Position numbers and translations under genes: made by a program. Shown here in pieces: positions 1 through 53,118 of a DNA stretch of 53,118 nucleotides. The number at the start of each line of letters is the position of its first letter. Position 1 is the first letter of the stretch. The notes beneath the pieces were generated by a model. It worked only from the letters and a program-made list of their open reading frames with translations, was not told the origin of the DNA and searched no databases. The stretch comes from Psammoneis japonica (lineage: Eukaryota), in NCBI GenBank assembly GCA_008632985.1, contig QPGO01000001.1, forward strand, positions 186,001 to 239,118, read 5' to 3'.

Positions 1-1289
1 CGGGAAGAAGGCGCTCCACCTGGTTGATTTTTTCTTTGACATCATTCCCATCATTGGCAAAGCTGAGGGGCTTGTCAAGGCCCTTGTTGGCCACATGCTG
101 ATTGCTGGAAGAGAGCTTGATGCTTCAGAATGTGCGCTCAATGTGCTCTGTGTCCTCTCCATTGTGGCAAAATGCCAAAAGTTAATTTGCCAGGCTGACA
201 GAGTCATGGAGAAAAATGAGCATCTCAAGGCACTCAGAGAAGAGGTTCCCATCCTGAAGGGATGCCTTGCTCTGGTCAGCTGAGCAGAGACAGCCAAACG
301 TCAGGGCTGCAGGTTTGTGCTCAAAATGACACAGCTTGAAATTAAGAAAAACAGAGCTCTGTGTTGTTGAGGACAGACTCAAGGGCTTTGGACCACATTC
401 CCACAGAGGGCAGAGTGGAGCGGATGTCATTTGTTGGAATGGTGATGTGTTGCAGCACAAGTCTCTTGCAGCTCATTGTGTGATCTCGAGAGAGCCATCA
501 ACAAGAAACCAGCTGCAAGCAGCATTGGTTAATGTCTGCATTCCGAAGCAGTGGACAAGAACATTGGCTTCCTTTTTGCATGGATTGTTGATGGGGATCA
601 GCTTTTTAAAGGTTCCAAATGAGTGAAAAAAACACCTGCTCAGAAGGAAATCAAGGATTTTTGCTCAAAACTCACCCAAGAGCTTGGTCAACTGCACAAG
701 AACTTGACCACACCAAAGGGCAAAAAAAGGTCTCATTGTGAAGGTTGAACCACACTTTGATTGAGTTGCTGGGGTGATGGTTGGTGCAGAGATGCAGGAT
801 CCACATTGTTTGTGGTTGTGCAAATGTTGCATTTCATGGAGCGCTTGGCTGTTCTGATCATGACTGCAAATGCTGCCCTTCTTTCCAGAGCTGATGAGCC
901 CTCCTTTGGAATCTCAAAGGCTCTCTGAGACAGACAACATTCCCTCCAATTTCTTGTGCAGATGTGTGCTTGCATGCATTGCTCAAATTGAGCTGGCTCT
1001 CTCTAGAGAGTGTTGCGCGTCTTGCAACAAAACAGAAACCAAAAAGCAACAAGAACGGAAGGTGAATTGAGGCAAAGTGTTCTTTTCCTTGTTGCCTTTG
1101 TGGGACATGTCAACTTTGTGGTGTGTTGCCAATGGCACACTTTCATGGCCTGTGGCATGCCAGATGAAACACTGCCACAACAAAACCAGCACTCCCAAAA
1201 AAGCACAGCTGCGCATTTTACAACCACTCAGTTTGGCGACAATCCATGTGTCAGTGAAGTGGTTCTCGGATGCCAACAAGGACTCTCTG

Positions 1290-1900
1290 CTGTCAGAGCA
1301 TCCTTGTCATCCACCAACCCTTTGGCAATGCTTTTGTGCTGTTCAGCAAAAAAGCATTGTGCAGGGTGACCCACTTGGCATGGTGGCTCATGGACTGGGC
1401 CTTCTCCTGCTGGTGGTCCAAGAGCTGAATGAATGTTTTCAACAGGCTTTCACCCCATGGCATGCTGATGACACCACTGCAGCAAAAAAAGCTGACATCT
1501 CACAGGATTTTTTCTTGACTCTCAAAGATGAAGGCCCCAAGCATGGATGCTGCACTGCTGACAACTCCAAGAATGTCCTGGCAGTCCCAGGGTGCGACTT
1601 GGAAATGCCAGAGCATGCTTTGGAGACCTTGGCTTCACTGTCTGCCAAGGTGGCCACCACCTTGGAGGCTTTGTTGGAGAGACAGATGCACTCGATCTTT
1701 GGTTGATGGAAAAAGCCAATTCATGGACCTCGGTCATTGAAGGACTCACAAAAATTGTGATCAATCACCCACAGACTGCCTGTGCCAGTCTCCAAAAGTC
1801 CCCACAACACCAGTGGCAGCATGTCCAACATGTGGCAAAGGATTGTGATGAATCTTTCATGGAGGCAGAGCATGTGATCCAACACCAATTGGCAAGACCT
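1290..1900 (+). mobile_element. Degenerate non-LTR retrotransposon reverse-transcriptase fragment (copy 1)
   Basis: Translates to VQGDPLGMVAHGLGLL...PWHADD...EGPKHGC, then FGDLGFTVCQGGHHLGGFVG...PQTACASLQKS. These are the QGDPL and YADD RT motifs with Tyr replaced by His/Cys. Frameshifted. Confidence 0.8.
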
Positions 1901-2150
1901 TGGCTGATGACAACCCAAGACTGTCCCTGTCTGCCCTCCCAATCAAATTTGCAGGACCATCCATCCCTCATCCAATGGAGTCCACATCCCAAAAACCACA
2001 AAGTGAGCACTCTTGCATGCTCCCACATGATGGACTCACTTCGAGAAAACTACACCATGGCATAATGCATGCGATGTACGGTCTACAAATGAAAGGTGCT
2101 ACAAACACACAGTGTGACTGATGCAAGAGAATGTAACACAAAATGCATGT

Positions 2151-4171
2151 CTAACTGTCACTTATTGTGAAAGCGTGCGCGGATCCGGACTCCAAACCAT
2201 TGACGTCAGCCCCCCGTGCACCAACTCCAACGACGCTTCCATTTGCCGACAAGGACACGGACCATCCATATTCATCACCTATAGCCTTGTCATTTAAAGG
2301 ATCTCCAACTTGCTTCCATTCGTCTGCATTGCTGTCGTGCTGAAAGATTCGAACCTGACCCGCAAAGACCAACCCATTGACGTCATGCCAACGACTTCCG
2401 ACCGCCAAGACATTCCCATTGCCACTCAACGACACTGAGTAACCAAAATCATCACCAGGCTGTTGTGTCAAGAGAGTTTGGCCACGTTGATTCCATGTCA
2501 AAGTTGAGCGGTCGTACGAATAAACCAAAACTCTCTCGTCGCTTCCAGGTGCACCTGCGGCAACGATCAAGCCACTGTCGTCAAGAGAAACCGACAATCC
2601 AAACTCACCATTAACGACTTGTCCATTGATTGGATCGCCCAACAGATCCCATTTTGACAAGGCAGAATTGTATTCAAACACCGACACTTGACCTGCATTG
2701 CTTCCACCCGAATCATGACCATCTGCTAAAAACGCCGACAATGGTTCCCTGCGCATTCAAGGAAACGGAAGTGCCAAAACGATCATTAGCAGCTTGGCCA
2801 ATGAGTGTTTGTCCGAGTTGGTTCCAGGATGAGGAGCCGCGGTCGTATTGAAACAATCGAACCGATCCAGAATCAGCTCCATTTTCCGTGTCATCACCGT
2901 AAGCTCCCACGGCAAGAATGTCTCCCGCGTCCGAGAGCGACACGGAATCACCAAATAAATCACCAGCGTCTTGTCCAAGAATGTCACTGCCGAGTTGAAC
3001 CCAACTATCCGATGCCGAGTTGTATTCAAACACACGAACGTGACCGGCATTCAATCCGCCACTGTCATTTTCATCCGCTCCAACCGCAAGAATTGTGCCG
3101 TCGCCATTTAACGAAACAGACTCGCCAAATTCGTCACCGCCGGCTTGTCCAATCAATTCTTGGCCAATTTGTGTCCATTGTTGGGTACTTCGATTGTATC
3201 GTTGCACAACAACATAGCCGGGATTGGAAGAAGAAAAGGTCCATTGATCCGCTCCAATTGCCATGACACTGCCATCACGAGACAAGGAAATAGAATTGCC
3301 AAACTTATCATATTCATCTTTGCCGTGTAAGGCTTGACCGACGGGCTGCCAATCGGCGGGAATAACGTTCATTTGAGCTGTAGTTGGAGATTGAGTGGGA
3401 AATAATGTAGGTGGTGTAGTTGTCGTTGGCGCTCCATCCTTGTTCTTTCTGTGGTTACTCGTAGACACAGCAACTGGGGCAGCAACTGCTATTGAAACAA
3501 CCACCAGGGCAACAACTCCAAGTGTAATAATGACGCGTTTGCCACGTCGTTTTCTATCACTGCCATTCTCAGAACCGTCACCATCACTCGCTCGAGCACG
3601 CTCAACTTGTGCAAGAGGCGCAAATCGATCATTCTTTTCTCTTGCCCATATGCCACCTTCTTCGATTTCATTGACTGTTGTAATGTTGTGCTTGCCTCGT
3701 CCACGAAGTACCTCGCCTTCCTCGTCGATAGCAAAGGCCCCAGGAGCCATATCGGGTATACGTCGCAGATCTAAATCGTCGTCTTCTTCTTCCATGTCTA
3801 CACCTCCCTCATAATCGAACATCCCCTCAACTTCGTTAAGATTACAATGATTCACCCGACTGTTCTGATTCTCATGCCGATTCTCATTATTTTCCTTCTT
3901 TGAAGCTGGTGGTTCTACATCACCGTCTTGCTCTTGCCTAGCTTTTTTGTCGCATTTCTGCTTTATGCCTCAACTCATTTTGATGAATGATTCGCTTTTG
4001 ACGTCTCTCACTAGCGGCTTCATCCGCCTCGTTTGCCTCTTGTCTCAAAAATTCTTCTTGAACCAAGTCTTGAGATGCTTCAATTTCCCGTTTCTCCTCT
4101 CCGTCTTCTCTCATGCTGTCAGTACTATCATACCGCTTAGTCGGTGAGTCCTCGCTAGTAGAAGGAGTCAT
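2151..4171 (-). CDS. FG-GAP (integrin-alpha-like) repeat beta-propeller single-pass membrane protein, copy 1; two +1 homopolymer frameshifts (~2728, ~3945)
   Basis: ORFs 3938..4204, 2713..3855 and 2151..2756 join into a paralog of 8222..10279. Repeated FGxSVSLSxDGxxLAVGA motifs and a TM segment VIITLGVVALVVVSIAVAAPV. Removing one base from each homopolymer run restores the frame. Confidence 0.85.
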
Positions 4172-4509
4172 GGATGCTTTTGATTGTGAAATAACAAATA
4201 ACAAAGTCTGTCGAATCTATGAATGACAACAACTATCGCGTACGAAGCAGGTATGCGCAGGACCAAATGTCTTGAAATCGAGAACCCTTGTCAGCATGCT
4301 CATCATCAGACATCAGGGCAGTTAAGTGACACGAGGGTTCGCATCTTCCCATGGTGCACCAAAGGTGTCACTGACAATCATCACATGTTATTCGTCACGT
4401 CGATTGCTTTGCATCGAACGTTCCGTGTCGCGGCGCTGCAACGAAATGGCCTTTTTGTTGTCTCATTGTGATGCTCGTTGGGTCAGGGTCGGTCAGCGTT
4501 GATTATGGT

Positions 4510-5230
4510 GGGCGGGGGGCGGCGTGCCGGTTCACGCGCGACACCTGCCACGCAGCCGACGAACGCTGCGCTTTTTCTTTTTTTTTTCGCCTTTTTTTTT
4601 TCACACCAGCACACCATGGGAAAATGGTTCCCAATCTCACAGTGGACAATCACTCACTTTTCACTGTGCCCCACTTTTGCGAGCTTGGCCAAAGTCAGAT
4701 GTCCCAGATGGGAGTGGGCCACAGTGATCTCAAGCTGAAGTTGGCCACAGCCACAAAAACAGAACAGGGTGCATCAGCTCTGCCTTGCTTTGATGCACTG
4801 CACCCCACTCTGCACAGCACAACCAAGCTGCTGCATCACCAAGAGAAACAAAGTGTCCCAAGCAACCACAACCATCTTGAGAGTGATGAGCTGCAATTGC
4901 ATGGACAAAAATGATTTGCCCAACTGTTTTGGGTCTCTCACACCACCAGCTCTTGTGATTTTTCTTCTTCAAAGCTGGCGGTCCTGCACCACTGGTGTCT
5001 TTCTGCAAAAGTTGCTGCTCTCATCACAGTTGTGCATGTGCCATCAACTCCTCTTGATGAGAGATGATGCATTGTTCCCACCTGTCCTTGTTGTTGCTGT
5101 CACAGTTGCCATGCATCAAAGTGTTTCCCCTTTTCTTCTTTGGTGCAATTGCGCTTGTTGTTGCCATTGTTCATTGCTGTTGTTCCATGCTTCTTTTTGC
5201 TTCAAACACTTTTGGCAGCACATGTGAGGA
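4510..5230. repeat. TpA/CpG-depleted island of unknown origin (insertion in duplication unit 1)
   Basis: Almost no TA dinucleotides, TG/CA-rich, and absent from the equivalent position in unit 2. Confidence 0.5.
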
Positions 5231-5816
5231 CACAAGACTGAAAACACATGCACGCACCTGCATGATGTCCCCCAAGTGCAGCTGAAACACGAGGACCACA
5301 CCCCATGACTTGAGCGGGCAGGAGGTCTTCCAATTTGAGGGGTGTGGAGGAGCCCGCTTTCCCGGGTCATTGAGAAGGATCTCAGTCGCAGAGGTGCGAT
5401 CGAAATTGTTCCACCATTTTGTGGCTCCCTCTTTAGAATTGTGTCATTGGAACTCATTCTCTTGGACATGCTGTTTTTTTTTTTTTCAATTGAAGTGTTG
5501 CCCATGTGCATTGCGCCCGTCATTGAGGAGGATCTCAGTCACGGTTTCAATCCGAATTATCCCGCCATTTCGTAGCTTCCTCTCTAGAATTATGATGTTG
5601 GAACTAATTGTCTTGGACACGATGTTGTTTCCAAAAAGGTTTTCCTCAGAAAGAGAGAATGACAGTGGCTGGCATTCTGTGGCTGCACGGCAAGATTTTA
5701 AAAAACAATTTGAAAACATGGTGCGGTGGCCTTGGTTGAACCACATTCATTAACTTCCCCACTCACTCAAATCACAAACATGCACACACAAAATACAATG
5801 TTGTTTCACTCTCTTC

Positions 5817-6198
5817 TCAACATGCAATGTTTCCCTTTTTTGTTTCACACCACTCATTGACAAAACAACAAACAAGAAAGTACGATGCCGAAATGCTGAA
5901 ATCACACCAAACATGTCCACCAATGTCCTTCATGTCGGCACATTTGAGTGCCAGCAACCATCCCACACAAGTCGTCAAGATGGAACTGCCCCACACGGAC
6001 ACCGAATGGGCACACGGATTGGCCCGTTTGGCAGCCTTGTCCCACACAAACAATTGACAAATGGCCGATGCGAGATGCGCCAACGTGAAGACAATGGCAA
6101 AGGAATGTTGAATGGAACTCACACCCAACATTTCCACCGCCACCCATGCGGCAATGCCGGAAAACAACATGGAAAAGATCCAATTGTTGGCAGCCGGT
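5817..6198 (-). pseudogene. Truncated duplicate of the 3' end of the membrane-protein gene at 10815-12432, TpA-hypermutated
   Basis: Reads ...AHLASAICQLFVWDKAAKRANPCAHSV...GGHVWCDFSISASYFLVCCFVNEWCETKKGNIAC versus the source ...AYLVSAIYQLFVWDKATKRANPYAYSV...GGHVWYDFSISASYFLIYYFVNERYETKKGNIAY. Confidence 0.92.
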
Positions 6199-7369
6199 GC
6201 TGGAAGAGAGCTTGATGCTTCAGAATGTGCACTCAACATGCGCTGTGTCCTCTCCATTGTGGCAAAATGCAGAAAGTTGGTTCGCCAGGCTGACAGAGTC
6301 ATGGAGAAAAATGAGCATCTCAAGGCACTCAGAGACAAGGTTCCCATCCTGAAGGGATGCTTTGCTCTGGTCTGCCAAGCAGAGACAGCCAAAAATGCTG
6401 AACAATGTCAGGGCTGCAGGTTTGCACTCAAAATGACACAGCTTGAAATTAAGAAGAATGGAGCTCTCAGTGTCATTGAGGAAAGACTCAAGGGCTTTGG
6501 ACCACATTCCCACAGAGGGCAGAGCAGAGCGGATGCCATTTGTTGGAATGGTGATGTGTTGCAGCACAAGTCTTGCAGCTCATTGTGTGATCTCAAGAGA
6601 GCCATCAAGAAACCAGCTGCAAGCAACATTGGCCGGTGTCTGCATTTGGAAGCAGCAGACAAGAACATCAGCTTCCTTTTTGCATGGGTTGTTGATGGAG
6701 ATCAGCTTTTGAAAGGTTCCAAATCAGTGAAAAAACCACCTGCCCAGAAGGAAATCAAGGACAAATGCTCAAAACTCACCCAAGAGCTTGGTCAACTGCG
6801 CAAGAATTTGACCACACCAAAGGGCACAAAGGTCATTGTGAAGGTTGAACCACACTTTGATTGAGTTGCTGGGGCAATGGTTGTTGCAGAGATGCAGGAT
6901 CCACATTGTTTGTGGTTGTGAAAAAGCAGCATTTTGTGGAGCTCACTTGGCTCTGTTCTGATTACAACTGCAGATGCTGTCCTTCTTTCCAGAGCTGATG
7001 AGCCCTCCTTTGGAATCTCAAAGGCTTTCTGAGACAGATGACATTCCCTCCAAAATTTCTTGTGCAGATGTGTGCTTGCATTCACTGCTCAAATTGAGCT
7101 GGCTCTCTCCAGAGAGTGTTGCATTTCTTGCAAGAAAATAGAAACAAAAATCTGACAGGAATGGAAGGTGAATTGAGGCAAACTGTTCTTTTCCTTGCCT
7201 TTGTGGGAGTTGCAAATGACACACTTTCATGACCTGTGGCATGCCAGATGAAACACTGCCACAACAAAACCAGCACTCCTGAAAGAGCACAGCTGTGCAT
7301 TTTACAACCACTCAGTTTGGCATCAATCCATGTGTTGGTGAAGTGTTTTCTCCGATGCTGACAAGGACT

Positions 7370-7970
7370 CTCTGCCATTGGAGCATCCTTGTCATCCACC
7401 AACACTTTGGCAATGCCTTTGTGCTGTTCAGCAAAAAAGGCATCATGCAGGGTGACCCACTTGGCATGGCAGCTCATGGACTGGGCCTTCTCCCACTGGC
7501 CCAAGAGCTGAAGGAATGTTTTCAAGAGGCTTTCACCCTGTGGCATGCTGATGACTCTCCACTGAAGCAGAAAAAGCCAACACCCCACAGGATTTTTTCT
7601 TGACTCTCAAAGATGAAGGCCCCAAGCATGGATGCTGCACTGCTGACAACTCCAGTCCCAGGGTGCAACACTTGGAAATGCCAGAGCATGCTTTGGAGAC
7701 CTTGGCTTCACTGTCTGCCAAGGTGGCCACACCACCTTGGAGGCTTTGTTGGAGAGACAGATTCATGTGACCATTGGTTGATGGTAAAAGCCAAGTCATG
7801 GACCTCGGTCATTCAAGGACTCACAAAAATTGTGATTCGTCATCACCCACAGACTGCCTGCGCCAATCTCCAAAAGTCCCCACAACACCAGTGGCAGCAT
7901 GTCCAACATGTGGCAAAGGATTGTGATGAATCTTTCATGGAAGCAGAGCATGTGATCCAGCACCAATTGG
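7370..7970 (+). mobile_element. Degenerate non-LTR retrotransposon RT fragment (copy 2)
   Basis: SKKGIMQGDPLGMAAHGLGLLPLAQELKECFQEAFTLWHADD; duplicate of 1290-1900. Confidence 0.8.
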
Positions 7971-8221
7971 CAAGACCTTGGCTGATGACAACCCAAGACT
8001 GGCCCTGTCTGCCCTCCCAATCAAATTTGTAGGACCATCCATCCCTCATCCAATGGAGTCCACATCCCAAAACCACAAAGTGATTACATGCTCCCACATG
8101 ATGGACTCACTTCATGAAAACTACACCATGACATAATGCACGCGATGTACGGTCTACAAATGAAAGGTACTACAAAAACACAGTGTGACTGATGCAAGAG
8201 AATGTAACACAAAATGCATGT

Positions 8222-10279: not shown

Positions 10280-10814
10280 GGTTGCTTAAAATCTGTTGTT
10301 GCATAAAGCGACATAGGAAGCAAACAGTATAATGCGGACACTTCGAATGGCACATGATGTATTGACTATTGACTGTGATGCGATGATGTATACTGTAAGA
10401 CTGTAAGGCTGAAGAAACGCGGATACACCCGCATGACGTCCCCCCTACATATAGATAGAAATGGACCCCGTTACCATCGCTACCACAACCTGTGTATGAG
10501 GCCTTCCGATTTAGGGGGTGGGAGGGAGCCCGCTTTCCCGGGTGCGATCCGAATTATTCCGCCATTTCGTCGCTTTCCTCCCTCTTTAGAATTATATCGT
10601 TGGAACTAATTGTCTTGGACATGATATGTTGTTTCCAAAGGTTTTGCTCACAAAGAGAGAATGACAGTGGCTGGCATTCTATCTACACGGCAAGATTTTA
10701 AAAAGCAATTTGAAAACATAATGCGGTAGCCTTGGTTGAACTATATTCATTAACTTCCCCACTCACTCAAATCACAATCACACACACAAAATACACTTTC
10801 GGCTTCCACTCTTC

Positions 10815-43080: not shown

Positions 43081-43105
43081 TGTTTCCAAACTTTCCATTT
43101 GTCAC

Positions 43106-43381
43106 TGACAGAAAATGAAGGCAAATGGCAAGAATTCAAACAACAACTCCTTGCTGCTGTCCAAACAGCAGATGAGTCTCCGCTCAGAGACCGTCACAGG
43201 AGCCGAAAGACGTGCAAGTCGGTGCAATCGGGCTACTGTCATTGTTCTTGTGAGCCTTGTGGCTCGAAAGCAAACTACATCGCGCGTGAACGCGCGGAAC
43301 CAAAGCACACAAAACTGTGCACGGTAAACTAAACAGCGCGCGACACTTCGCGCGCACCCAAATCCTGTTCAAATCCTGTCA
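43106..43381 (-). repeat. 3' LTR (TpA-mutated copy)
   Basis: Direct repeat of 49942-50217; adjacent to a short purine-rich tract (minus strand AAACTGGGGAG, 43382-43392). Confidence 0.95.
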
Positions 43382-46300
43382 CTCCCCAGTTTGCTTGAGG
43401 AGCCACAGAAACAGATTCGACTTCGGATGGAATGAAGTTCCAGAACATGAGGGGGCGGAGAAGGTCCCAGATTTGGGAGCAACCCCAATGCTTGCTGAGA
43501 ATGTCAGCAGGGTTGCGGGAGCCTTCGATGAAGTGGAACTCAAGGCAACCAGAGGCAATTGCCTCACGCACACGGTGGAACGATGGTGCGGTGTGTCGCT
43601 TGTGTAACTTGGAGTGCGGGATGGTGGCACTGTCCACAGCCGACTTGTTGTCACCGAACATGTAACTGACGTTGCGGATCGGGACGCCAAGGTGGCGCAG
43701 GGTGATGCGCAGGTCGACAATCTGCTCAACACAAGTCCTTGCGGCAACAAATTCAGACCCGCAGGTTGCAGTCTCCATGGTGGCTTGTTTCTCAGAGAAC
43801 CAATCAGCCGGGAATTTGTTGAGGAAGTGGAGCATTCCCATGACAGAGCGTCCGGTGAGCATGCAATGGCACAAGTTTGCATCGACGCAGTGGGTGGCAG
43901 TGACGAACTTGCCAAGGGGCAGTGGAGCGTCCTTCGGGATCATCTCTTCTGCTTCACCATGCATGGAATGCATCCATTCATGGGCCGGAGCAGGGAGATC
44001 CGAACAGTCGGGTTCTTCCGTGCGAACGCGGAGAGCACCGTGTCGCATCTTGGAGAGGCACCCACAGACACGTTTGGCACGGTCCAAGTGGCCTTGACGG
44101 GGCGCAGCTCGGAAGCTAGAGAGTGACATGACGGCCGTGGTGATGTCAATTCGACCAAGGGACACTGCCCATTGGAGTGAACCAACAAGAGACTGGAACT
44201 TGTGAATGCCATCGGGTCCCAGCAGTTCGGAAGTGTCCAGTTCGGGGTGGTCACCCTTCTCTAGAGGTGACAGGGCGTTGGTGGCAGGTTTCTCCCCAAA
44301 CAGTCGGGCACAGCTGTCGACCATGCGCTCGATGTACTTGCGCGGAGACAGGCACAAGGTTCCGTCGGGTTCCCGGGAAAAGTCGCAACCCAGATGGAAC
44401 TCAATGGGTCCCGCACCCTTGAGCTTGAACTTGTGCTTTTCCGTGAGAGTGTCGACGAAAGATTGAGGGTCCTTCATGGCAATGGCGAGGTCATCCACAT
44501 AAATGGCAATGTGTTCACAGTGGTCGCCGTTCCTGCGCATCCAAATGTCGGGTTCGGCGCGGCAGGGGAAGAAGCCTTCAGCTCGCAGGCAGTCGGCGAA
44601 GCGCTCGTGCCAGCGGAGACCGGAGCTGCGCAGTCCATGCAGTGCCTTGTGGATGACAAGGATGTGTCCTTCGAGTTTGCCGAACTCGGGTCCAGCTGCA
44701 ATGTGAAGCTTCTCCTTGGTGGTGGCTTCAAGGCAGGCATTGCCAATGTCGGTGGCCCATGTCTCCAACTCGTTGAGTTCGGCCAGGAAAATCATCAGCC
44801 GAAGGCCACGGAGGGAGACTGCTCCGGAGCAGACACTGTCGACAGGTACGTCCGTGAGGTGCCCGTCGGCTGCGAGTCATGCCTTGTGGCGACCGTCGTG
44901 TTTCACGTCGCACACCAGGTGCACTCGGATCTTCTTGTGTCCCGCAGGAGGAGTGGAAGACTTGAAGGGCCCGCAGTCATGGAAGACTTCGTATTCGTCG
45001 AGTTGGTCCATCTCGAGATTAGTTGCGTCTCCCCACTTGCGGTTGCCGTTGCGTTCGTCTGGTGACATGGCGTGTTTGCAGTTCCGGGGAACTTCGTGTC
45101 CATGCTTGTAGCGAGGTGCAGTGCAGAAGGAGTGAAGCTTGGCTTGGTTGGCCATGCGAAATGGCTTCTTTTGGCGCCTCGCGATGGTGCGGAACCGCTT
45201 CCAGCCATCCGTGTCGAGGAGTCCGTTCTCTCGTGCATGGATGGCACAGGTGACGGGGTCGTCCTTGGCGATGATGGCAAGAGGCTCGGACGTGATCTCC
45301 CCACTTTCCCATTCAAGCATGATGTTGTAGCTGGAGCCTTTCCAGGTTGGGTCGTGAGGCTTCAGAGGTCCTTCGTGCGACACGATGCGTCGAAATTTCC
45401 AAACAGTGGTGTCTTCGTCTTCTTGCTCAATGTGATTCATGATGTCATTGCAGGCAAGGACTTCCTCGCATTCGTCATTGTTGACAGAGCAGACGAACTC
45501 AGTGAGCTCGGGATTGCCGTTCACTTTCCATTCGTGGTCTTCGACGGCCTTGACGATGCGAGCTCTGTGGCGTTGTCCGTCCTCTTGTGGCTGCATGAGG
45601 AAGGTACGTCCAATGATGTCTTGCGGATCGAAAACTGGCATCTTGGGTGTCCTGATCTCCCCATCAGGAGAGTCGACGGGGTTGTCGTCATGGCGAGATT
45701 TGATGATGGGTTCAGGTGGCTCCCCATCAGGAGGATCAAGATGCAGGTTTCGAACGGCAGGATCGGGGGCAGCGGATCGGACGTTGGACCGGCAGAGGAT
45801 CTTCTGAGTCTCGTCAGATAGAATCTTGAAGGTCATCTGGTGGCCGACGTGCTCAGCAATGCCAACGAAGCGTCCACGCAACTCATGGGATTCGGACGGC
45901 CAATCGGAGTCATCGAGGTGGAAGCACACGGGTTCCCACCAATGAATGCGAAGCAACGGGCTGATGTCCGGGGTGGAGCCAGTGAGAGTCTCGAGGGGCG
46001 TGCGCCAGTGGAGACGTGGGGACGCTGCATGGTTGAGCATGAAGCACACGTGCATGAGCGCCAGCAGCCATGCATGGGCGGGCGAACCAAAACGATCCAT
46101 GACAGTGTTCGCCATGCGCTTCACGGTCTGGTGTCGACGTTCGGCAAAGTTTTGGTGTTGCTGGTGAGGCTCACTTTGCCAGCTAGAGATGAAGAGGGCG
46201 CGCAGGATCCCGAGCACTTTGTTGCTGATCTCAACTTGAGCACGGTCGCCAATGAGTTTGGATGGGGCACCACGTTCACGGATCTGATCCTCGAGTGTGT

Positions 46301-48998
46301 TGACAAACTCTTTGTCCGTCTCAGTGCCACAGACGTCAGTGACGGTAGACTCGGTGCCAACAAACAGTTGGGCGCTGGTGCAACCAGAGTCGACGGCCGG
46401 GGTGTCGGCATGAACGGTGTCAGTGGCGATGGGCTCGTTGCGGCGGTGCACATTAAGGGCGGGGTTGGGTGATTTGCAGGCCTTGCGAAGGTGTGTGCCG
46501 GCGGGCATGCGGGCGCACTGCGTGGTGCAGTCAAAAGTACGACGGACCGCATCGGCAGGCAGGAAGCCAAAGCAAGGCCGAAGAGACTCGAAGGGGGGGT
46601 CCTTGGGCTGCACAGTGCGCTCCGGAGGTGGAACGTCATCGCCCTGGGGGCCAATCGCATGCAGATGACACTCATAGAACACGTCGTTGTTCGGAATGAG
46701 GTGATCATCGAGGGCGGACGCGTGATTGGCAGACAAGGAAGCGGACAAGATGGTCTCGTTGACAACGACACGATGACGGTAGTTGCCGCATTCATCAAAC
46801 AGGTTGGCAGTGGGATCGTCCAGCAGGTCAGAGATCGCGTCGCACCACTGGTCGTCGTCAGTGACAGAGTGATCGAGGACGGAAGGGTCCCATGTGTCAT
46901 CACCGGTGAGGATGACATGGGGCAGGGTGTCCCATTCGGCGTCAGTGTAAGGTCGCATGGCAACACAAGGCAGGCCAGCCTTGATGTCAATGGGGATGAC
47001 ATAGCCATCAGGAGTGGCAATGCATTGCAAGCCGTTGGGCACCTTGACAGAGCGATCGTTGACATCCTGTTTGCACCATTCGAGCTGGCCGCAGGAATGG
47101 ATGGTCTTGCCCTTTCCCGTGCATGCGTGCTGATGGAGGATGGCGATGACGGGACCACGCTGGGTCTCAATGACGGCACCAGCGGTGACAATGGGGATGT
47201 CCACCAATTGATGATCGTCAATGCCCTGAACGTCGACTTGGCGAGAGGTGCGTGCAATGACGCGAACGTCGTCGCCAGCAATGCCGCCGTTGGCCCCATG
47301 ATCGACCAGAGCGCCAGTGCGTGTGGATCGATGAGCAGAGGCAGAGCAAATGACATTGTGGTTGTCAACGCGGCGGCAAGTGCGGCCGTTAAGTTCCATG
47401 TCATCTGCAGAAGCTGGCGGGGCAGAGGAAGCGGCGGATGGCCCCGGTCAACTGGCAGTGGGGGCTTGGTTAGGAGACAACAGACGTTGCAGATCACCGG
47501 GTGGCAGTGGCTTGCGCTTGGTGAGGTGCGCCAGGATGGGATCATCCGAAGTGGCGTCCACATGTGGGGCGGAGTCACCAAAGTCAGCAGGAGTCGTGTT
47601 GGACAAGTTGACATCACCGTCACTCCCAAGGCGTTGGTCGTGAAGGTTGGCCGTAACAGACTCATGGCAGTTGCTGGCTCGCGGGTTGCGGGGAGGTGGA
47701 CGAGAATGCTCAAGGATGATCGCCTTGGAGGAATCGGGCAACGAATCCCAGAGCCGTTGGTGGTCAGGAGGGAGACGTCTCCATTGGACACCGGCGAGGC
47801 TGGGACCGCGGGTGCAGGCAGCATTGGCTTGAAGGACGTCAACGTCGCTGTCAATGTCGTAGAACACATCGTCGGACGGTTCCTCGGAGCAGACGTCGTG
47901 TGCGTGTGTGGCGCGTCGGGGAGCTCGAGGTGTCGTCTTGGGTTGAAACGTGCTGTCGTGCTGAGCTGCCGCGGAGAGGAGCAAGCCACAGTGTTGATCG
48001 CATGTGAGGCTCTTGCCACTCTGCGTGCGATGCTGATCAGCTTGGTTCTTGACAGCACGGAGTTCCTCGACAGGGTGCACGGCATTCTCGAGCATGACGC
48101 GCTTCTGTCCTTCAGAGAAGTGGTCACTGGCCGGGATGAGTGCCTCGCACTTGCGCAACTGATCTTGCCAATGAAGGATGAACCCGTGGGTCGGACCTTT
48201 CCAAGTGCCATCACCAAGACGCGCGGTGGTGAGGTGCGTGAGCAGGGTGGAGGACTCGACAGATGCGCGGGTGGAGGCAAGCGCGCACTCAGACAAGGAG
48301 CGGCAGACGGTCTGTGCGTCAGAAGACCCCACATTTTCGCGAATGAGAGCCTTGCCCTTGTCGGTGAGAAGGATGCGTTCGAAGACGGCGAACATGCACT
48401 TTTGCTGTTCAGCAAAGAGCAGTTTGTCTTCGGGGCTGGTCGGTTTGTACTGCGAGTCTAGAATGCACTCGACGTCTTGGGCACGGGCTTGTGCCACAAG
48501 TGAGGTGTGCCAAGTGTGCCACTGCTTGTCGGATTTGAGAGCCGTGAAAGCGGTGGGGTCACGCTTGATGCCTCGCTTGAAGTCCCGCACCGGGTCGCGT
48601 GCCTCAGTCGGGTTGGTGACATGTGGAGGTGCAAGGGGTGAGCTGCCGATGGACACGGAAGACATGCAGTCGGGGCTGAGGCGGCAGGCAAGGAACTCGT
48701 CATGCGTGAACAAAGAGGAGTCGTTGGCAACGTCAAGACCTTTGTGTGCTTTGACAATGCACAGACTGGCCAGTGCTGCCAACATGTTCTTGTGACCACG
48801 GGGCAAAGGGATTGCATTAGCGCCGTTGTCGCACTCAAGCGAGTCGATTTGGGACGGCATGAACGTGAACAGTTCCTGATGTGAGTCCGTGCCGTCTTGG
48901 GCCAAAGCCAAACGAAGAGGACTCCCAGCACCTTGGGCAAGCACGGTTCCAACCACGTGCTCGAAACCATCGGTTTGTTGCTGACGAGTGAGAACCAT
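43329..48998 (-). pseudogene. gag-pol polyprotein in a single frame, with two TGA nonsense codons (47448-47450, 44877-44879) and pervasive Tyr->Cys/His
   Basis: Gag FKRGIKRD; protease LVDHGANGG; integrase ATDT..., QQHQNFAERRHQT; RT KHDGRHKA*LAADGHLT, TDIGNACLEA, YVDD; RNase H DANL, GSEF, GDNKS, NPADILSK. The ORF pieces share one frame. Confidence 0.93.
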
Positions 48999-49926
48999 GG
49001 CAGACAAAAAAAATGGTGTCAGGACAATCAATTCTGGTTGGGAAGCGAAGGTAGACTCGAAACTTGGGTGAGAACAGACTTGACTTGAAGTGGACTTGAC
49101 TTGAAATCTTGAACTGTCTTAAAATCAGAAGTTGCCGGGCTTTGTTATCCCGTTCGTTGTCAAGTGCTAAACTTCCCATCCGGTCCGCAGAGTTGTGCCG
49201 GCACGTCCGAACCCGCAGCTGGCGGCGCTTTGGGTTGCTTGCGAGCGGAGCAGCGGGTTGTAAACCCCTGCAGGCAAGCTGACCAGAGGTGGACAAGACC
49301 CCCGAACCGTTCTCATTTTACATCGGTTGGATTTCCCGATCAGGCTGGCCAGTTGACGTGGGCGTTGGGCGCTGTGGACGAACGAACAAACGCGGGAAAG
49401 CACCCTCGCCCCAACGCAGGCTGCAATCACGGCTGCTTGCTCTCACAGTCGTCCTCGTGGACCTAGTAGAACTGTAGAGCACCAGCAGTCCGGGGTAGAT
49501 CAGGTGCAATGGACTCGGTGTGCTTGTAGAGTGGCAGCAAAACCGCAGTCCGAAGAGTGGGTACAGGTTCTTGGCCGTGAAGATATGTATATATATATAT
49601 GTCTTCAGCGACGAAGATCCTTGAATATGTAGGGTTCTTGACCGTTAACCGATGAATAGGTATATCAAGGGATGAGGATCAAGGATAGACTTGGATATGA
49701 CCGTTGAATGTATGTCTTCAGCGATCAAAGGTTGTATAATCAATCCAGATATCCAGCGGTAAGGAGACTTGACGGTGACGTTAACTTCCTGCCGATGCCC
49801 TGGTATTGAATGCGTGTAGACTTGCCGATGTATGTAGAATATATACGGAGGTCCACGTAGAATTAAAAATAGCGTCGTTGGTAAATCAACGACGACGATG
49901 GCGGTTGCTCAATGGGTTGACAATGA

Positions 49927-49941
49927 GCAAGACTGTTAATC
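49927..49941 (-). promoter_or_regulatory. Putative primer-binding site complementary to a tRNA-Asn(GUU) anticodon arm
   Basis: Lies immediately inside the 5' LTR. Minus strand reads GATTAACAGTCTTGC; plus strand GA-CTGTTAA-TC resembles an anticodon stem-loop. Confidence 0.55.
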
Positions 49942-50217
49942 TGATAGAAAATGAAGGCAAATGGCAAGAATTCAAACAATAACTCCTTACTGCTGTCCAA
50001 ATAGCAGATGAGTCTCCGCTCAGAGACCGTTACAGGAGCCGAAAGACGTGTAAGTCGGTATAATCGGGCTACTGTTATTATTCTTGTGAGCCTTGTGGCT
50101 CGAAAGCAAACTACATCGCGCGTGAACGCGCGGAACTAAAGCACACAAAACTGTGCACGGTAAACTAAACAGCGCGCGACACTTCGCGCGCACCTAAATC
50201 CTGTTCAAATCCTGTCA
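49942..50217 (-). repeat. 5' LTR (retains 16 TpA)
   Basis: Direct repeat of 43106-43381, followed by the TSD. Confidence 0.95.
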
Positions 50218-51386
50218 GTCACATTCAATTGCAGAGAGGAGTGCCAGTGTGCTGACTCAAAGGATGGACTCAGAGTTTTTGTTGCAGAAAGACCTTGGAG
50301 GCATTGAAGAAAACAAAGAAGAAAAAGGATGAGATTTTGCATGGTGACTTGTGACATCCTGTGTTCCTCCATCCTTGGTGCTTGCATGTGTTGCAGCAAA
50401 AATTTGCAAATGGTGTCTGTTGCATGAGACAATTTTTGGAGGCAACTCTGTTCATTGGCTTGCTGGAGGCAAGGAGTCTTCATTGACAATGCCGCCTGAA
50501 GCAAACCCAAATGCAAAGATGACACCCAAAATCACACAGCCATCCCAGCAACGTGTGAGAGAGAGCACACTCAACTGAAAACATCAAAAAAAGAAGCATG
50601 ACTTCCTGACAAACACTGTGTTTTGCAATCAAAACCAACTGGGACAAGTGCTCCATTCCAAAAAAATGTTGAGTCATTTGATTGACTCCTGTCACACCCA
50701 AGCAACCTCTGTGCTGTTGACATCAAAACCAAGCATCAGGGTGTCAGGCAGGCTGTCACTTCAAAAGATGGCACACATGGAATGTGACAGTGAGAAGAGC
50801 TTTCAGTTGTTCTCCAAAATTTGATGTCAAATTTGTGCAAGTCATGACTCGTGCATGACCTTTTGCATTGACAATTGTTGGTGCCTTGCTGTTGCTGACA
50901 GAGAGTGGGCTTTGCTCTTGGCAGTGAGTCCAATCATCTCACAATTGTTCACCGCCATTGTTGGTCAGCCAATTGACCAGAACAACCTGGATTTTGACAG
51001 GAGTGTCACGTGTCTTCTCTTGCAATTGAGGCATGCAACAACAATGTGTGAAGCATGTCATTTTTCTTTTGGACAAAAGCATGAGAATGAATGACAATTT
51101 TGTAGAGACTGCAGCAGAACTGGTCATGACAGACCACTGCACGCTAGACCAAATGCAGACCACGAATCTTCTTTAAATAAAATGACGTGGCAGATGAATC
51201 TTGCAACAATCTTGGTTTGCATTTGTGTGTTCATGAATGCCACAAAATGTGCTTTGACGCTTGCTGTTTGCTCATGACGTCTCTGTCACGCCAGGATTTT
51301 TGGTGAGCCAACAACAAACAACACATGCACCGCAGTGCACACAGTGGTGGCTTGCACTTGTTTGTTGTCAACTTGTCGTTTCACAC

Positions 51387-53118
51387 ATGATGTCAAACAC
51401 CAATGAAGGTTCATCTGTCCTTTTGTCCTCAGATCATGAGGCAGACAAAAGTGATGACAATGATTTGTCAAGCTCCCAGCAAGAGCTGTTGGAAAACAAT
51501 GACAATGCAATTTCTGATGCACACGGAGATGACAGTGGTGCAACTGACTCTGCTCAGTTTACCTCCTCTCAACCAGCGCTTCCACCCCCTCCCTCTCTTA
51601 AAAAGGTCTCAATGCCTTCATTTGTGAACAATTGTGGGGAGCATTCTGAAGCACACCCTCTCAAAGAGCAGAGCAAGGAACTTCTCAAGAAGAGCTGGTC
51701 AGCTGAGGATCTCACACAAGAGATCATTAAACTTGCTCCCACAGAAGAAGACATCTCCAATGCCAACAAGAACCAACGATCTCCAGATTCTTTCAAGACA
51801 AAGCGCAAGCTTGTGTTTCCTGTTGGTCGTCACTTTGCCAGCTGCAAGCAGTTGCACCAAGCTGCCATCCAGTTTCTTGACATGTGGGCCATTTCTTGTG
51901 TTCATGATGGGAAGCAAATTGTTTGTCACTTCAGTGATGCCAAGTCAGATGCGTGCAAAGAGAAAAAAAGAAAGCCTTTGGATCAATTGCAAGGCAGTGG
52001 CAGCCGCAGGTGCCAGAAGCAGTCCATGAAAGAGCAGCGCAAATGTCCATTTGTGATTCGGCACTCTCTTGTCAACAAGCATGTCAACCCTCAATTGGGT
52101 GCAACAAAACCAGGCATTTTTCACCTTGTGAAGATTGCCGCAGCAAACTGTCACCATTCTCATGACCTCAACACGGTTTTCCACCGCAAGGCAAAAGAGA
52201 CCAGTGGCAACCTCCAACCAAATCTTGCTTGTCTTGAGTCAGTGATTGATCGGATTGAGTCAAATCCATCAGTGGAGCCCAGGGAACTGCGGCCATTGTT
52301 GCAGAAGCACATGCCAGTCCATGCCTCAATGGATGCAACCTTCATAAAAAATTTCAAGCATCGTGTCCAAACATGGTTGATCAATGCAGACCCCCAGGAG
52401 CGTCAGGTTGCAGCTCAGTTTGCAGAAGACCTGGCAAAGAAATGCCGAAAGAGTGCAGCTGATGAATTCATCATCAGTGACTCAACCATTGCTCGAAAGA
52501 ATCTACATGCCATGCTTCGACGTGTGATGCAGGAGGACTCATCCACTTGGAATGCACTTCATTTTCTTGAAGCCATGAAAGAATCAAACCATGGATTTGA
52601 CTTCCGATTGATGCGTGATGACAATGGCAGACCAGAAGCAGTTTGCTGCATGAACCTTGAAATGAAACGTGACCTCAAGAGGCACAGTGATGCACTCCAC
52701 CTAGATGCTCAGAAGCGACAGCACAACAAGGCTGGTTGGCCACACATTGGTCCGGCAGTGAAGGACTCTGAGATGAAACCTCGTGCTGTTGCAGAAGGCC
52801 TCTGCCTGGAGGAGGATCACAAGCACTGTCATTTCATTCTTGAGTCCATGGAAAGCATCATGGAAAACAAGTGGCAAATCTCAGATGTTGGGATCATCTT
52901 TGCTGACCAGCACCCAACCAGTGGCTCCACACACTTTCAATGAGGTTTGGCCAAACCCTGACAATTTTGGCATTTTCCATTGTGAAAAGATGAAGGACTG
53001 CCTCCGGATAATGCTGCAGTGCAGCACAGAGGAAGAATGGGCCCATGCATTCAATGAGGCCAAAGTGCATGTTGCTGATGATGCTCAGAAAACCTGCATT
53101 CTGCGAGACATTTTCTCT
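51387..53118 (+). mobile_element. Mutator/MULE-like transposase pseudogene, runs off the window end
   Basis: GFDFRLMRDDNGRPEAVCCM...RHSDALHLDAQKRQHNKAGWPHIGPAVKD...IIFADQ resembles the MULE/FAR1 DDE core, with an upstream KCPFVIR...HHSH motif. No Tyr in the 560-aa ORF; frameshift near 52920. Confidence 0.75.

Follow-up and report, generated by a model that had tools for sequence, protein, structure and literature searches.

Probable targeted TpA-to-TpG/CpA hypermutation of silenced transposon- and pseudogene-derived DNA in a likely diatom

Why do long blocks of transposon- and pseudogene-derived DNA almost lack the dinucleotide TA, while the genes beside them keep it? The question is raised by a contiguous stretch of 53 kb, analysed here as a whole and called the window. 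It probably comes from a diatom; among the 120 matches listed for its FKBP gene, all 7 named hits belong to diatoms. A preliminary description of the sequence had proposed a repeat-targeted conversion of TpA to TpG or CpA. Our analysis makes it probable that DNA-level hypermutation of this kind acts locally on silenced DNA derived from transposable elements (TEs) and pseudogenes and leaves genes alone.

Extent and borders of TpA depletion

Our own segmentation delimited nine TA-depleted domains (Table 1), which together cover 24,247 bp, or 46% of the window, and give way abruptly, within tens of bases, to the surrounding DNA. They contain 107 TA against about 1,018 expected (observed/expected ratio, o/e, 0.07), a deficit with a binomial probability by chance of about 1e-300, compared with 1,212 TA in the 28,871 bp outside them. 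TA is somewhat under-represented in genes as well, so that their earlier description as normal in TA holds relative to the blocks but not for the gene o/e itself, which is only 0.59. In 500-bp windows, TA o/e ranges from 0.00 to 0.14 in the blocks originally delineated and from 0.3 to 0.95 in gene regions. Those blocks agree with our domains to about 50-200 bp, the second being divided by a TA-bearing island at 5573-5751. Twenty-five runs of 300 bp or more contain no TA, the longest (1,737 bp) lying in domain 7; in 30 first-order Markov simulations using the window's dinucleotide frequencies, such runs averaged 0.43 and never exceeded 3. The near-absence of TA from the TE- and pseudogene-derived blocks is thus confirmed as real.

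Table 1. Features of the window (positions in the window; CG, CA and TG values are o/e)
Feature	Position	Strand	Evidence
TA-depleted domain 1	1-2076		8 TA, TA o/e 0.06, CG o/e 0.16, CA 1.65, TG 1.84
Segmental duplicate of 6198-9967 (depleted part and FG-GAP gene part)	103-3903	+	87.8% identity over 3.8 kb
TA-depleted domain 2	4324-5572		4 TA, TA o/e 0.05, CG 0.58
Depleted host-sequence fragment, copy of 10536-11196	5539-6199	+	87% identity
TA-depleted domain 3	5752-8121		9 TA, TA o/e 0.06, CG 0.19
Normal-composition parent of 5539-6199	10536-11196	+	37 TA
TA-depleted domain 4	12672-14764		12 TA, TA o/e 0.09, CG 0.33
TA-depleted domain 5	28365-31022		8 TA, TA o/e 0.05, CG 0.28
TA-depleted domain 6	34591-35804		5 TA, TA o/e 0.07, CG 0.25
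TA-depleted domain 7	38761-41903 (to 41802 if ended before the TIR element)		12 TA, TA o/e 0.05, CG 0.29
MITE-like element bounded by TIRs, within depleted DNA, itself not TA-depleted	41803-42735		TIR, composition, word depth
Copia-type LTR retrotransposon in older depleted block	43105-50220	-	LTR pair, RVT_2, empty site
3' LTR, hypermutated	43105-43384	-	13 differences from 5' LTR
Copia body, TA-depleted, CpG-retaining	43385-49145	-	domain 42659-49145: TA o/e 0.12, CG o/e 0.88, GC 0.56
5' LTR and ~0.8-kb leader, spared	49146-50220	-	59 TA in 1,075 bp; TA o/e 0.95 at 49501-50000
TA-depleted domain 9	50221-53118 (domain 50162-53118)		13 TA, TA o/e 0.06, CG 0.30
MULE-like (Mutator/FAR1-type) transposase relic	51258-52940	+	homologs, Tyr loss

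Substitution spectrum, sequence context and CpG decay

The direction of change was read from five polarised parent/copy pairs, in which 55 of 69 parental TA have become CA or TG, 13 are kept and one is TC; the reverse case, TA in the depleted copy facing non-TA in the parent, occurs once. This single case lies in the host-sequence fragment at 5539-6199, where the parent's 37 TA appear as 17 CA, 12 TG and 8 unchanged. Conversion is complete (4/4) in 4997-5201 of domain 2, a decayed copy of 10034-10237, and affects 8/9 and 2/3 parental TA in the domain 5 segments 28551-28631 and 28763-29027, copied from 26729-26808 and 27602-27856. Across the polarised pairs, the older of which share 72-87% identity and carry numerous other substitutions besides the TA changes, A→G is far from equal between contexts: it reaches 40% at TpA (55/137) against 6.6% at ApA (18/271), 5.9% at CpA (12/203) and 4.8% at GpA (9/188). 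The proposed TpA-specific change on either strand is borne out. The two products are balanced, TG making up 0.45-0.54 of CA+TG across the nine blocks. Erasure is most complete where T follows the TA or A precedes it, and the contexts that survive best are TTAA, CTAA and CTAG. Error-prone repair of the pol-eta WA→WG type, earlier put forward as a candidate, fails because ApA shows no elevation.

The blocks are also depleted in CpG, a feature on which the preliminary description is silent. Eight of the nine domains have a CpG o/e between 0.16 and 0.58, the exception being the copia domain, and C→T in the polarised pairs affects 23 of 147 CpG sites compared with 2-7.5% in other contexts. By domain counts, losses of about 911 TA and 544 CG (1,455 together) face a gain of 1,386 CA+TG. 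Since copia has lost TA with its CpG intact, the two processes are separable; CpG decay is a distinct and slower process, which we attribute to deamination of 5-methylcytosine (5mC) in the same silenced blocks, with TA loss coming earlier.

Targets, spared elements and timing

The copia-type element carries an LTR pair (the 5' LTR at 49941-50220) of 95.4% identity, an RVT_2 domain match in an ORF at 43332-44876 on the minus strand, and an empty site: a contig from one sequencing run (X1) connects 43100 with 50218 and leaves out 7,117 bp, 5 letters being shared. The Atlas clusters closest to it are likewise copia-type and come from Bacillariophyta, a further lead towards a diatom source. Twelve of the 13 LTR differences fall at TA (nine TA→CA, three TA→TG), leaving 4 TA in the 3' LTR against 16 in its unmutated twin, while all 20 CG are kept. 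TA loss is fast relative to ordinary substitution, with 12 of 16 TA changed against one other change in 280 bp, in a family so abundant (13,255 X1 contigs placed on 20 kb) that the mutated/unmutated junction and the LTR asymmetry could be an assembly or polishing chimera. The empty-site contig also indicates that domain 9 was contiguous with 42736-43104 before the copia insertion.

Within domain 9, the MULE-like relic has 585 homologs at E ≤ 0.001; in a domain scan of nine of them, three match ZSWIM1-3 RNaseH-like, one above Pfam's cutoff. Its ORF lacks tyrosine in all 561 residues, whereas the homologs contain 3.4%. At eight Tyr-conserved columns, the relic has His at five, Cys at one and Phe at two, i.e., Tyr→His/Cys at 6/8, with Phe, Trp, Pro and Arg preserved alongside. 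Four environmental relatives have normal TA (o/e 0.63-0.80). Of the element classes originally named, copia stands, MULE stands in part, and gypsy and LINE gained no support: the blocks contain 181 stop-to-stop ORFs of 70 aa or more, and none of the 109 that were scanned has a matching domain at E ≤ 0.001. The DNA hit in the window consists of TE relics and host-sequence fragments, with no viral gene recognised.

Paired copies illustrate both the confinement of the process and its timing. Domain 1 is paralogous to 6198-8100 (92% identity) and belongs to a segmental duplication whose FG-GAP gene parts retain 56 and 55 TA and 111 and 113 CG. CA↔TG discordant sites, some of which may derive from ancestral CG, number 23 in the depleted parts against 3 in the gene parts. 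Both strands are hit, as are host-gene fragments and the MULE-like relic, and the two LTRs and the duplicate copies have separated from each other; the process therefore acts on DNA, after integration or duplication, and not on an RNA intermediate, as had been proposed. Its restriction to TE-derived and pseudogene blocks is likewise borne out.

Unmutated young insertions are situated within depleted DNA. The TIR element has a 32-nt terminal inverted repeat (91% complementary) and a second, 20-nt pair, a TA o/e of 0.89 (window 42001-42500), and a summed X1 word depth of 4,442-10,400 compared with 34-75 on its low-copy flanks. This element, the 5' 1.1 kb of copia and two 1.86-kb gene duplicates of 88% identity are all unmutated, and depletion extends to blocks whose copy number now seems low, so "repeat-targeted" was too simple a label. 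Nor does a simple silencing-domain model explain why the TIR element and copia's 5' end were spared. Conversion is possibly still ongoing: TA↔CA/TG accounts for 4 of 9 listed single-base differences between X1 and the window in depleted low-copy blocks and for 2 of 14 in normal parts.

Comparison with known systems and possible mechanism

The preliminary description knew of no process that erases TpA in repeats, a statement now outdated. Mettrop et al. (bioRxiv 10.64898/2026.01.13.699255) describe how NCLDV and virophage DNA integrated in Bigelowiella natans undergoes hypermutation of TpA to TpG/CpA. In the mutation-accumulation lines of that preprint, 11 of 15 of which were active, two viral regions gained 231 de novo mutations, of which 230 were A→G or T→C, each of these on TpA; an ADAT2-like adenine deaminase was proposed without proof. 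The process in the window is the same kind, run near saturation. Shared features are nearly exclusive A→G/T→C change, strictly at TpA and on both strands; discrete regions of foreign origin in an otherwise normal genome, with, over the long term, a low share of TpA and a high one of CpA+TpG; TE-type Pfam domains, enriched in the TpA-depleted coding sequences of B. natans; and apparently non-constitutive activity. The systems differ in lineage (B. natans is a chlorarachniophyte of the Rhizaria, whereas the named homologs here are from diatoms), in extent (124 clusters in ~95 Mb against 46% of 53 kb), in completeness (a TpA content of still 3.3-9.2% in the viral regions against a saturated signature here) and in targets (viral DNA there, TE relics and host-sequence fragments here). 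Events were observed de novo in B. natans, whereas ours are deduced from paralogs and one run; the window further shows CpG decay in the same places, a preference for certain flanks, and spared elements nested in depleted DNA.

Fungal RIP resembles the process in that it, too, inactivates mobile DNA where it lies: its transitions are dense, tied to a sequence context, present on both strands and sharply delimited, and they heavily skew dinucleotide indices. RIP, however, is a C→T process, mainly at CpA, that creates TpA, whereas here A→G destroys it. Creation of TpA by RIP is also stated by Mettrop et al. (10.64898/2026.01.13.699255). Duplication alone is no trigger here, as the gene duplicates illustrate. 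In silenced repeats, deamination of 5mC likewise produces TpG and CpA, and it is evident in eight of nine domains, but CpG decay cannot remove TA, as the copia element makes plain. APOBEC3/AID enzymes share the use of editing as defence and dinucleotide specificity. Their substrate is C, which gives G→A in the plus strand, and they work mostly in single-stranded cDNA before integration and strand-asymmetrically, in contrast to the post-integration, two-stranded A→G seen here. Adenine deamination itself is the chemistry of TadA, ADAT2/3 and TadA-derived DNA base editors. tRNA A34 follows an invariant U33, giving a native 5'-UA context; the preferred 3' T here is unlike the anticodon context.

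It is quite possible, though the balance falls slightly short of even, that in the chemical step an enzyme deaminates adenine to hypoxanthine at 5'-TpA-3'. A regex for a deaminase zinc motif found none across the window, in keeping with the earlier remark that no effector gene is visible there. Read as T→C, the TA→CA change would also follow if a TET/JBP-type enzyme oxidised or hypermodified the T of TpA (to 5hmU, 5fU or a glycosylated form) so that it mispaired with G; by symmetry, pair, flank and context data fit a T- or an A-directed enzyme equally, both models making the TG product depend on the 3' flank and CA on the 5' one. 5-Formyluracil favours A:T→G:C, and the 5hmU of dinoflagellates is enriched at TpA. 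We nevertheless regard a modified thymine as rather unlikely: because polymerases read stable 5hmU as T, this route needs an additional mutagenic step, and the sole study of the phenomenon proposes an A-deaminase, albeit likewise unproven. Lower still we rate a by-product of heterochromatin repair or replication (e.g., error-prone patch synthesis or TpA-favouring biased mismatch repair) with no dedicated defence. The coincidence of depletion with CpG decay in most domains suggests methylated, silent chromatin, diatom TEs carry 5mC via DNMT5a (PMC9998398), and no effector is known. Yet the pol-eta WA motif fails, borders are sharp, young insertions within depleted DNA are unmutated, the rate in the LTR is extreme, and activity in only some B. 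natans lines better fits a regulated process.

It is very unlikely that TA is actually present and was lost to miscalling of a modified base or to unpolished repeats, even though high-copy elements such as copia are prone to consensus chimeras. X1 is possibly the source of the assembly, with its library type off record, and its agreement with the window then gives no independent support. It contains 0.81 of the words sampled from a stretch 57% depleted, and its contigs (word depth 34-60) match low-copy depleted blocks with 0-1 base differences per 1.6-1.9 kb, unlike noisy long reads. Contig record 2 differs over 34345-35977 (domain 6) by one other letter and two gaps, and record 5 over 39823-41712 (domain 7) not at all; two depleted blocks being reproduced almost exactly, a long-read basecalling artefact is unlikely. 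CA and TG products also occur within one copy, copies differ at the same sites, Tyr→His/Cys stands beside preserved residues at the protein level, the same blocks show CpG decay, and Illumina NovaSeq data from B. natans give an identical spectrum. ADAR-like editing of RNA from TEs, made permanent by reverse transcription into the genome, would suit the best-dated target, a retrotransposon, and ADAR is known to prefer A→G at sites with a 5' U (10.64898/2026.01.13.699255, Discussion). This reading is already contradicted and has only a slight chance of being right, since both strands are hit about equally, a DNA-transposon relic and host-sequence fragments are hit too, ApA is not elevated, and the copies of a chromosomal duplication diverged independently. 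Both LTRs of a retrotransposon are moreover copied from one template in reverse transcription, so RNA editing cannot produce the LTR difference. Also contradicted, and next to impossible, is a native composition, whether always TA-poor foreign DNA or selection against TA; the genes are mildly TA-poor too, but conversions are direct in the polarised pairs (55 forward, 1 reverse), the MULE-like relatives have normal TA, and one copia LTR kept the TA its twin lost.

Under adenine deamination, then, A in TpA would be deaminated to hypoxanthine and read as G, on either strand, within silenced transposon- and pseudogene-derived DNA. A silencing mark or guide, rather than copy number alone, may recruit the activity, which is probably episodic; TpA conversion would come first and the slower CpG→TpG/CpA decay of the same blocks would follow. 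Apart from this window, the TpA→TpG/CpA pattern has so far been reported only for an unrelated alga, in a single preprint of 2026. The window, probably from a diatom, would make a second, distant lineage with the process, here with a saturated signature.

TA depletion and the fate of lost dinucleotides

The window (GC 48%) has an observed/expected ratio (o/e) of 0.37 for TA and of 1.42 for both CA and TG. Segmentation by TA density delimited nine depleted domains (see the table). They make up 45.6% of the window (24,247 bp) and contain 107 TA at an o/e of 0.07. The remaining 28,871 bp contain 1,212 TA at an o/e of 0.59, and at this normal density approximately 1,018 TA would be expected in the domains (binomial P(≤107) ~1e-300). 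In 25 places TA is missing for 300 bp or more, and for up to 1,737 bp; in 30 first-order Markov simulations with the dinucleotide frequencies of the window, such gaps numbered 0.43 on average and never more than 3. The domain edges are abrupt. A 180-bp TA gap is followed past 35793 by a TA every 5–15 bp, and the edges at 12671, 28367, 31023, 41904, and 42658 are equally sharp. The TA deficit is localised, not diffuse, and the preliminary description, which had reported blocks nearly devoid of TA, placed their limits correctly to about 50–200 bp.

Coordinates of the features discussed
Feature	Position	Strand	Remarks
TA-depleted domain	1-2076
TA-depleted domain	4324-5572
TA-depleted domain	5752-8121
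TA-depleted domain	12672-14764
TA-depleted domain	28365-31022
TA-depleted domain	34591-35804
TA-depleted domain	38761-41903
TA-depleted domain	42659-49145
TA-depleted domain	50162-53118
Pair 1	normal 10536-11196; depleted 5539-6199
Pair 2	normal 10034-10237; depleted 4997-5201
Pair 3	normal 27602-27856; depleted 28763-29027
Pair 4	normal 26729-26808; depleted 28551-28631
Pair 5	normal 49941-50220; depleted 43105-43384		copia LTRs
Copia-type LTR retrotransposon	43105-50220	minus	280-bp LTRs 95.4% identical; RVT_2 E 3e-18; copia-type leads in the Atlas cluster resource
MITE-like element	41803-42735		~930 bp; 32-nt terminal inverted repeat; TA- and CpG-rich; TA o/e ~0.9
MULE-like ORF	51258-52940	plus
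Segmental duplication	103-3903; 6198-9967
FG-GAP gene duplicates	2041-3903; 8101-9967
FG-GAP repeat gene	2151-3855
FG-GAP repeat gene	8222-10279
FG-GAP repeat gene	17265-19322
FG-GAP repeat gene	19749-21870
FG-GAP repeat gene	23997-26206
E2 ubiquitin-conjugating domain ORF	15322-16552
TerB-domain ORF	27217-27840
PIG-L ORF	37091-38494		GlcNAc-PI de-N-acetylase family

Inside the domains the o/e values of CA, TG, and CG are 1.69, 1.65, and 0.48, versus 1.20, 1.23, and 0.98 outside. With the outside counts scaled to domain length, the loss amounts to ~911 TA and ~544 CG (1,455 together) and the gain in CA plus TG to 1,386, a balance expected if both TA and CG were converted to CA or TG. A self-comparison of the window yielded five pairs, each with a parent in normal DNA and a second member inside a depleted domain. 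CA or TG replaced 55 of the 69 parental TA, 13 were kept, and one became TC, with both CA and TG products present in every pair; in the reverse direction, a single TA in the depleted members stands opposite a parental non-TA. Pooled over strands, A→G per adenine reached 40% at TpA (55/137), with 18/271 at ApA, 12/203 at CpA, and 9/188 at GpA. For C→T, the rates were 15.6% at CpG (23/147) and 2–7.5% at cytosines elsewhere.

These per-context rates point to two context-specific processes, A→G at TpA and C→T at CpG. A general drift from A to G is absent, since A→G outside TpA is not commoner than C→T outside CpG. The contrast of 40% at TpA with 5–7% in other contexts bears out the TpA→TpG/CpA hypermutation proposed in the preliminary description. 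Its suggestion of a pol-eta-type error (WA→WG), which would raise A→G at TpA and ApA together, fails because ApA is not elevated (6.6%, versus 5.9% at CpA and 4.8% at GpA). The spectrum also differs from that of fungal RIP, which changes C to T at CpA or other CpN and creates TpA: in the window TA is destroyed, and C→T at CpA is found at only 4 of 201 sites.

The bases flanking TA influence its survival. Counted in domains/normal DNA, the rarest survivors are ATAT (0/110), CTAT (0/58), GTAT (1/109), and ATAC (1/94), and the commonest are TTAA (20/71), CTAA (8/31), and CTAG (10/44). The target adenine requires a 5' T, with a 3' T best and a 3' A worst. Moreover, the product tracks the flank in the polarised pairs, a 3' T giving 10 TG and 5 CA and a 3' A giving 2 TG and 16 CA.

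Mutation of chromosomal DNA, the copia element, and CpG decay

The retrotransposon is assigned to Ty1/copia by its LTR pair, short target-site duplication, and RVT_2 match. Its integrase and gag were recognised neither by Pfam (E≤0.5) nor by a PDB sequence search, which gave no hits for the 856-aa copia ORF. Reverse transcription yields identical LTRs. Here the two differ at 13 positions, and 12 of these, all in the 3' LTR, are TA→CA (9) or TA→TG (3), so that this youngest pair is changed almost exclusively by T→C or A→G; the older pairs carry ordinary substitutions too. In the 3' LTR, 12 of 16 TA have changed against one other change in 280 bp, and 20 of 20 CG are intact. CpG is also depleted in eight of the nine domains, but the copia domain combines a TA o/e of 0.12 with a CG o/e of 0.88. 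These data indicate that TA erasure is much faster than ordinary substitution and comes before CpG decay. TA loss and CpG decay are separable processes, the latter being attributed to probable 5mC deamination in silenced DNA. Diatom transposable elements are methylated at 5mC via DNMT5a, according to a published study (PMC9998398).

In X1, one of three public sequencing runs compared with the window, a contig bridges 43100 to 50218 and omits 7,117 bp, with five letters matching either side at this empty site. Because the contig joins both flanks, copia-free DNA exists at the locus, and the evidence points to a young insertion. The insertion is polymorphic, heterozygous, or missing from the X1 sample. 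The target may have been a decayed host-gene fragment: the depleted stretch 42736-43104 contains a frame with a weak EF-hand match (E 6.6e-4, under the cutoff). The rank-1 Atlas cluster nearest the hypermutated copia ORF is from Bacillariophyta (score 0.98) and has 91 members, with proteins of ~881 aa and no common Pfam domain. Similarly degraded copia ORFs may be annotated as proteins in other diatom genomes.

Both strands are affected. TG makes up 0.45–0.54 of CA+TG in nine blocks, both products occur in each copy, and no consistent block-level strand bias was found. In a runs test for strand-coordinated patches, one pair reached p=0.04, and two further pairs and a set of 23 discordant sites fell short of significance. 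The discordant sites, with CA in one copy opposite TG in the other, lie in the depleted parts of the segmental duplication, versus 3 in its gene parts, which indicates that the copies mutated independently after duplication. Some of them may have descended from CG.

The last domain carries a MULE-like ORF of 561 aa with 585 homologs at E≤0.001. The ZSWIM1-3 RNaseH-like domain was matched by three of nine scanned homologs, one of them above the Pfam cutoff, and a Pfam scan of 28 long ORFs at E≤0.5 gave no more than weak hints, for the MULE-like ORF. The consensus of a 14-sequence alignment contains a CxC...CxH block, which we take to be a SWIM-type zinc finger. Together, the homologs, the ZSWIM1-3 matches, and the SWIM-type block argue for a relic of a MULE-like DNA transposase. 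The ORF contains no tyrosine (3.4% in the homologs). Of its residues at eight columns of conserved Tyr, five are His, one is Cys, and two are Phe; most of the conserved Phe, Trp, Pro, Arg, and Leu positions are retained. A metagenome scan with the ORF as query found no relative; with query P0126, four loci were found, environmental relatives of the MULE-like gene with a TA o/e of 0.63–0.80.

ADAR-type editing of an RNA intermediate would act on one strand. In the window both strands are changed, and a DNA-transposon relic and chromosomal duplicates are among the targets; host-sequence fragments are affected as well in the paired copies. The strand balance, LTR difference, duplication discordance, MULE-like relic, and host-sequence fragments confirm that the process works on chromosomal DNA, as had been proposed from the first reading. 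By these five DNA-level lines of evidence, RNA editing followed by retrocopying is excluded as a general cause.

The depletion also affects annotation. Depleted DNA cannot contain TAA or TAG, so that long spurious ORFs arise on both strands. At 44877-48461, overlapping ORFs of 840, 764, and 656 aa on both strands lack domain hits, and gene finders would predict spurious genes there. Domain searches fail in the depleted blocks because codons that contain TA, among them those for Tyr and Ile, are rewritten. Pfam recognised RVT_2 alone in 109 block ORFs (E≤0.001), the Spexin and EF-hand_8 matches being under their cutoffs. Rfam and tRNA scans of the window gave no hits.

Read support, spared elements, and neighbouring genes

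X1 contains 0.81 of the sampled words of 34001-44000, a stretch that is 57% depleted by our segmentation. Aligned to the last 20 kb of the window, X1 contigs match 39823-41712 exactly and differ from 34345-35977 by one letter and two gaps; X1 may be the source sample of the window. A long-read basecalling artefact is unlikely, because exact contigs of 1.6–1.9 kb are atypical of noisy long reads, and the protein-level Tyr signature and the CA-versus-TG discordance between copies also speak against it. Runs X2 and X3 contain next to no window words, X3 covering the copia element only, and no RNA run with window words was found among the runs listed.

Among the 41 listed of 280 single-base differences between X1 and the window, nine fall in depleted blocks of low word depth, four of them TA↔CA/TG and two CG↔CA/TG. 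The window has CA and X1 has TA at 38808, 38908, and 38917; at 39444 the window has TA and X1 has TG. In the normal parts, 2 of 14 listed differences are TA↔CA/TG. The counts are small, but TA is about tenfold rarer in the depleted blocks, and the excess there may be a sign of recent activity. The word depth of X1 contigs, a poor measure, is ~34 on the depleted stretches 34345-35977 and 39823-41712 and 52–60 on genes at 33119-34149 and 35948-38641. An X1 gene contig differs from the window at seven bases. These observations could reflect a heterozygous diploid in which the haplotypes differ more from each other in the depleted blocks.

The hypermutation had been described as repeat-targeted, a rule too simple for several features of the window. 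The MITE-like element is unmutated though nested inside depleted DNA. Its family is abundant, with a summed X1 word depth of 4,442–10,400 on the element, versus 34–75 in its flanks; these sums are not copy numbers. Mutation of the copia element extends from the 3' LTR to ~49,145, but the 5' LTR and the next ~0.8 kb (49146-50220) retain 59 TA, with old depleted DNA in the flanks. As the copia family is very abundant (13,255 X1 contigs), an assembly or polishing chimera or gene conversion at ~49,145 is possible. The FG-GAP gene duplicates keep 56 and 55 TA, so duplication as such did not act as the trigger that it is in fungal RIP, although 87.7% is their identity of today. Conversely, depletion is complete in old domains whose word depth is now low. 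Thus, copy number is neither sufficient nor presently necessary. Targeting could depend on insertion age under episodic activity, on element length or transcription, or on recruitment by a guide. Episodic activity would fit the two unmutated nested insertions, as other explanations might. No convincing terminal repeats were found at the ends of four older blocks.

The domain-bearing ORFs in the window are long and uninterrupted, which suits a diatom more than B. natans, whose genes are rich in introns. At least five FG-GAP repeat genes are clustered, two of them also with ASPIC/UnbV, and one gene pair lies within the 3.8-kb segmental duplication. In a collection of 5.8 billion proteins, the best relatives of the gene at 8222-10279 are Bacteroidota proteins with a T9SS sorting domain (≤44% identity); judging from this similarity, the family may be of bacterial origin and expanded in the eukaryote. 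The full E2 ORF is preceded by a partial second E2 fragment in a different frame and has a single relative in the same collection, at 36% identity, which is unusual for E2. As neither this ORF nor the FG-GAP gene has an identical or near-identical protein there, the collection does not include the genome of the window. For the PIG-L ORF, the closest Atlas clusters are bacterial. An FKBP gene has matches of up to 72% identity; among the 120 matches listed, the seven named are all diatoms (Seminavis, Epithemia, Cylindrotheca, Pseudictyota, and the truncated names Thala-, Nitzsc-, and Pseud-). With the Bacillariophyta cluster of the copia ORF as a further lead, the source is probably a diatom or a close relative of diatoms.

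Precedent, mechanism, and significance

A process of this kind has been reported in the chlorarachniophyte Bigelowiella natans (Mettrop et al., bioRxiv 10.64898/2026.01.13.699255). In that study, 231 of 302 nuclear single-nucleotide mutations in mutation-accumulation lines fell in integrated NCLDV and virophage regions, 230 of the 231 were A→G or T→C, and 230 of 230 were at TpA. The rate was ~1000-fold above background, and 11 of 15 lines were active. Across the genome, the authors count 124 depleted clusters and 324 TpA-depleted CDS, in which reverse-transcriptase and DDE domains are enriched; an ADAT2-like adenine deaminase is their unproven candidate. The depleted domains of the window are likewise discrete, and copia and MULE-like origins are shown among them; host-sequence fragments are affected too, and no viral genes were recognised. 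The preliminary description knew of no process that erases TpA in repeats, a statement outdated by this preprint, with which its own independent inference agrees. In our literature search, which mostly covered sources outside subscription journals, TpA erasure in repeats was found only in this preprint and not for diatoms. The TA depletion of the window is real and striking: it is a new and saturated instance, probably in a diatom, of a process for which one 2026 preprint is the sole source.

We propose that an enzyme, recruited locally, converts TpA in double-stranded chromosomal DNA. Its recruitment probably relies on the same silenced state that leads to CpG methylation. This state cannot account for all of the targeting, because nested elements are spared. 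tRNA A34 deaminases target an adenine that follows the invariant U33. By analogy, the likeliest chemical step would be deamination of adenine to hypoxanthine, for which the chances seem nearly even. A six-frame search of the window for the deaminase zinc motif H(A/V)E...PCxxC gave no match. The main rival is a modification directed at thymine. The present data fit an A-directed and a T-directed step alike, but the sole study of the phenomenon points to adenine deamination (bioRxiv 10.64898/2026.01.13.699255), and we consider the thymine route rather unlikely. That the changes are a by-product of repair is improbable.

Read jointly, the two cases would represent a TpA-specific DNA-editing defence present in diatoms and chlorarachniophytes, and therefore old or widespread within SAR, which here would remove TA from practically all mobile DNA that is silenced and be recruited with sequence precision, by a guide or by homology, instead of by spreading chromatin. 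We hold this reading tentatively. Signs of such precision are the borders within tens of bases, the unmutated nested young insertions, and a copia element mutated over 6 kb with its 5' LTR and leader spared.

A natural TpA-specific editor of adenine (or thymine) in double-stranded DNA would be of interest for base editing. TpA erasure of foreign DNA has been described in one preprint only (bioRxiv 10.64898/2026.01.13.699255). A phylogenetically distant and saturated second case would mean that the process is not peculiar to one alga or to viral insertions. It would also enable phylogenetic profiling, in which genes common to both lineages and absent from signature-free relatives would be effector candidates, and it would bring the question to diatoms, in which knock-outs, methylomes, and small-RNA data are feasible.
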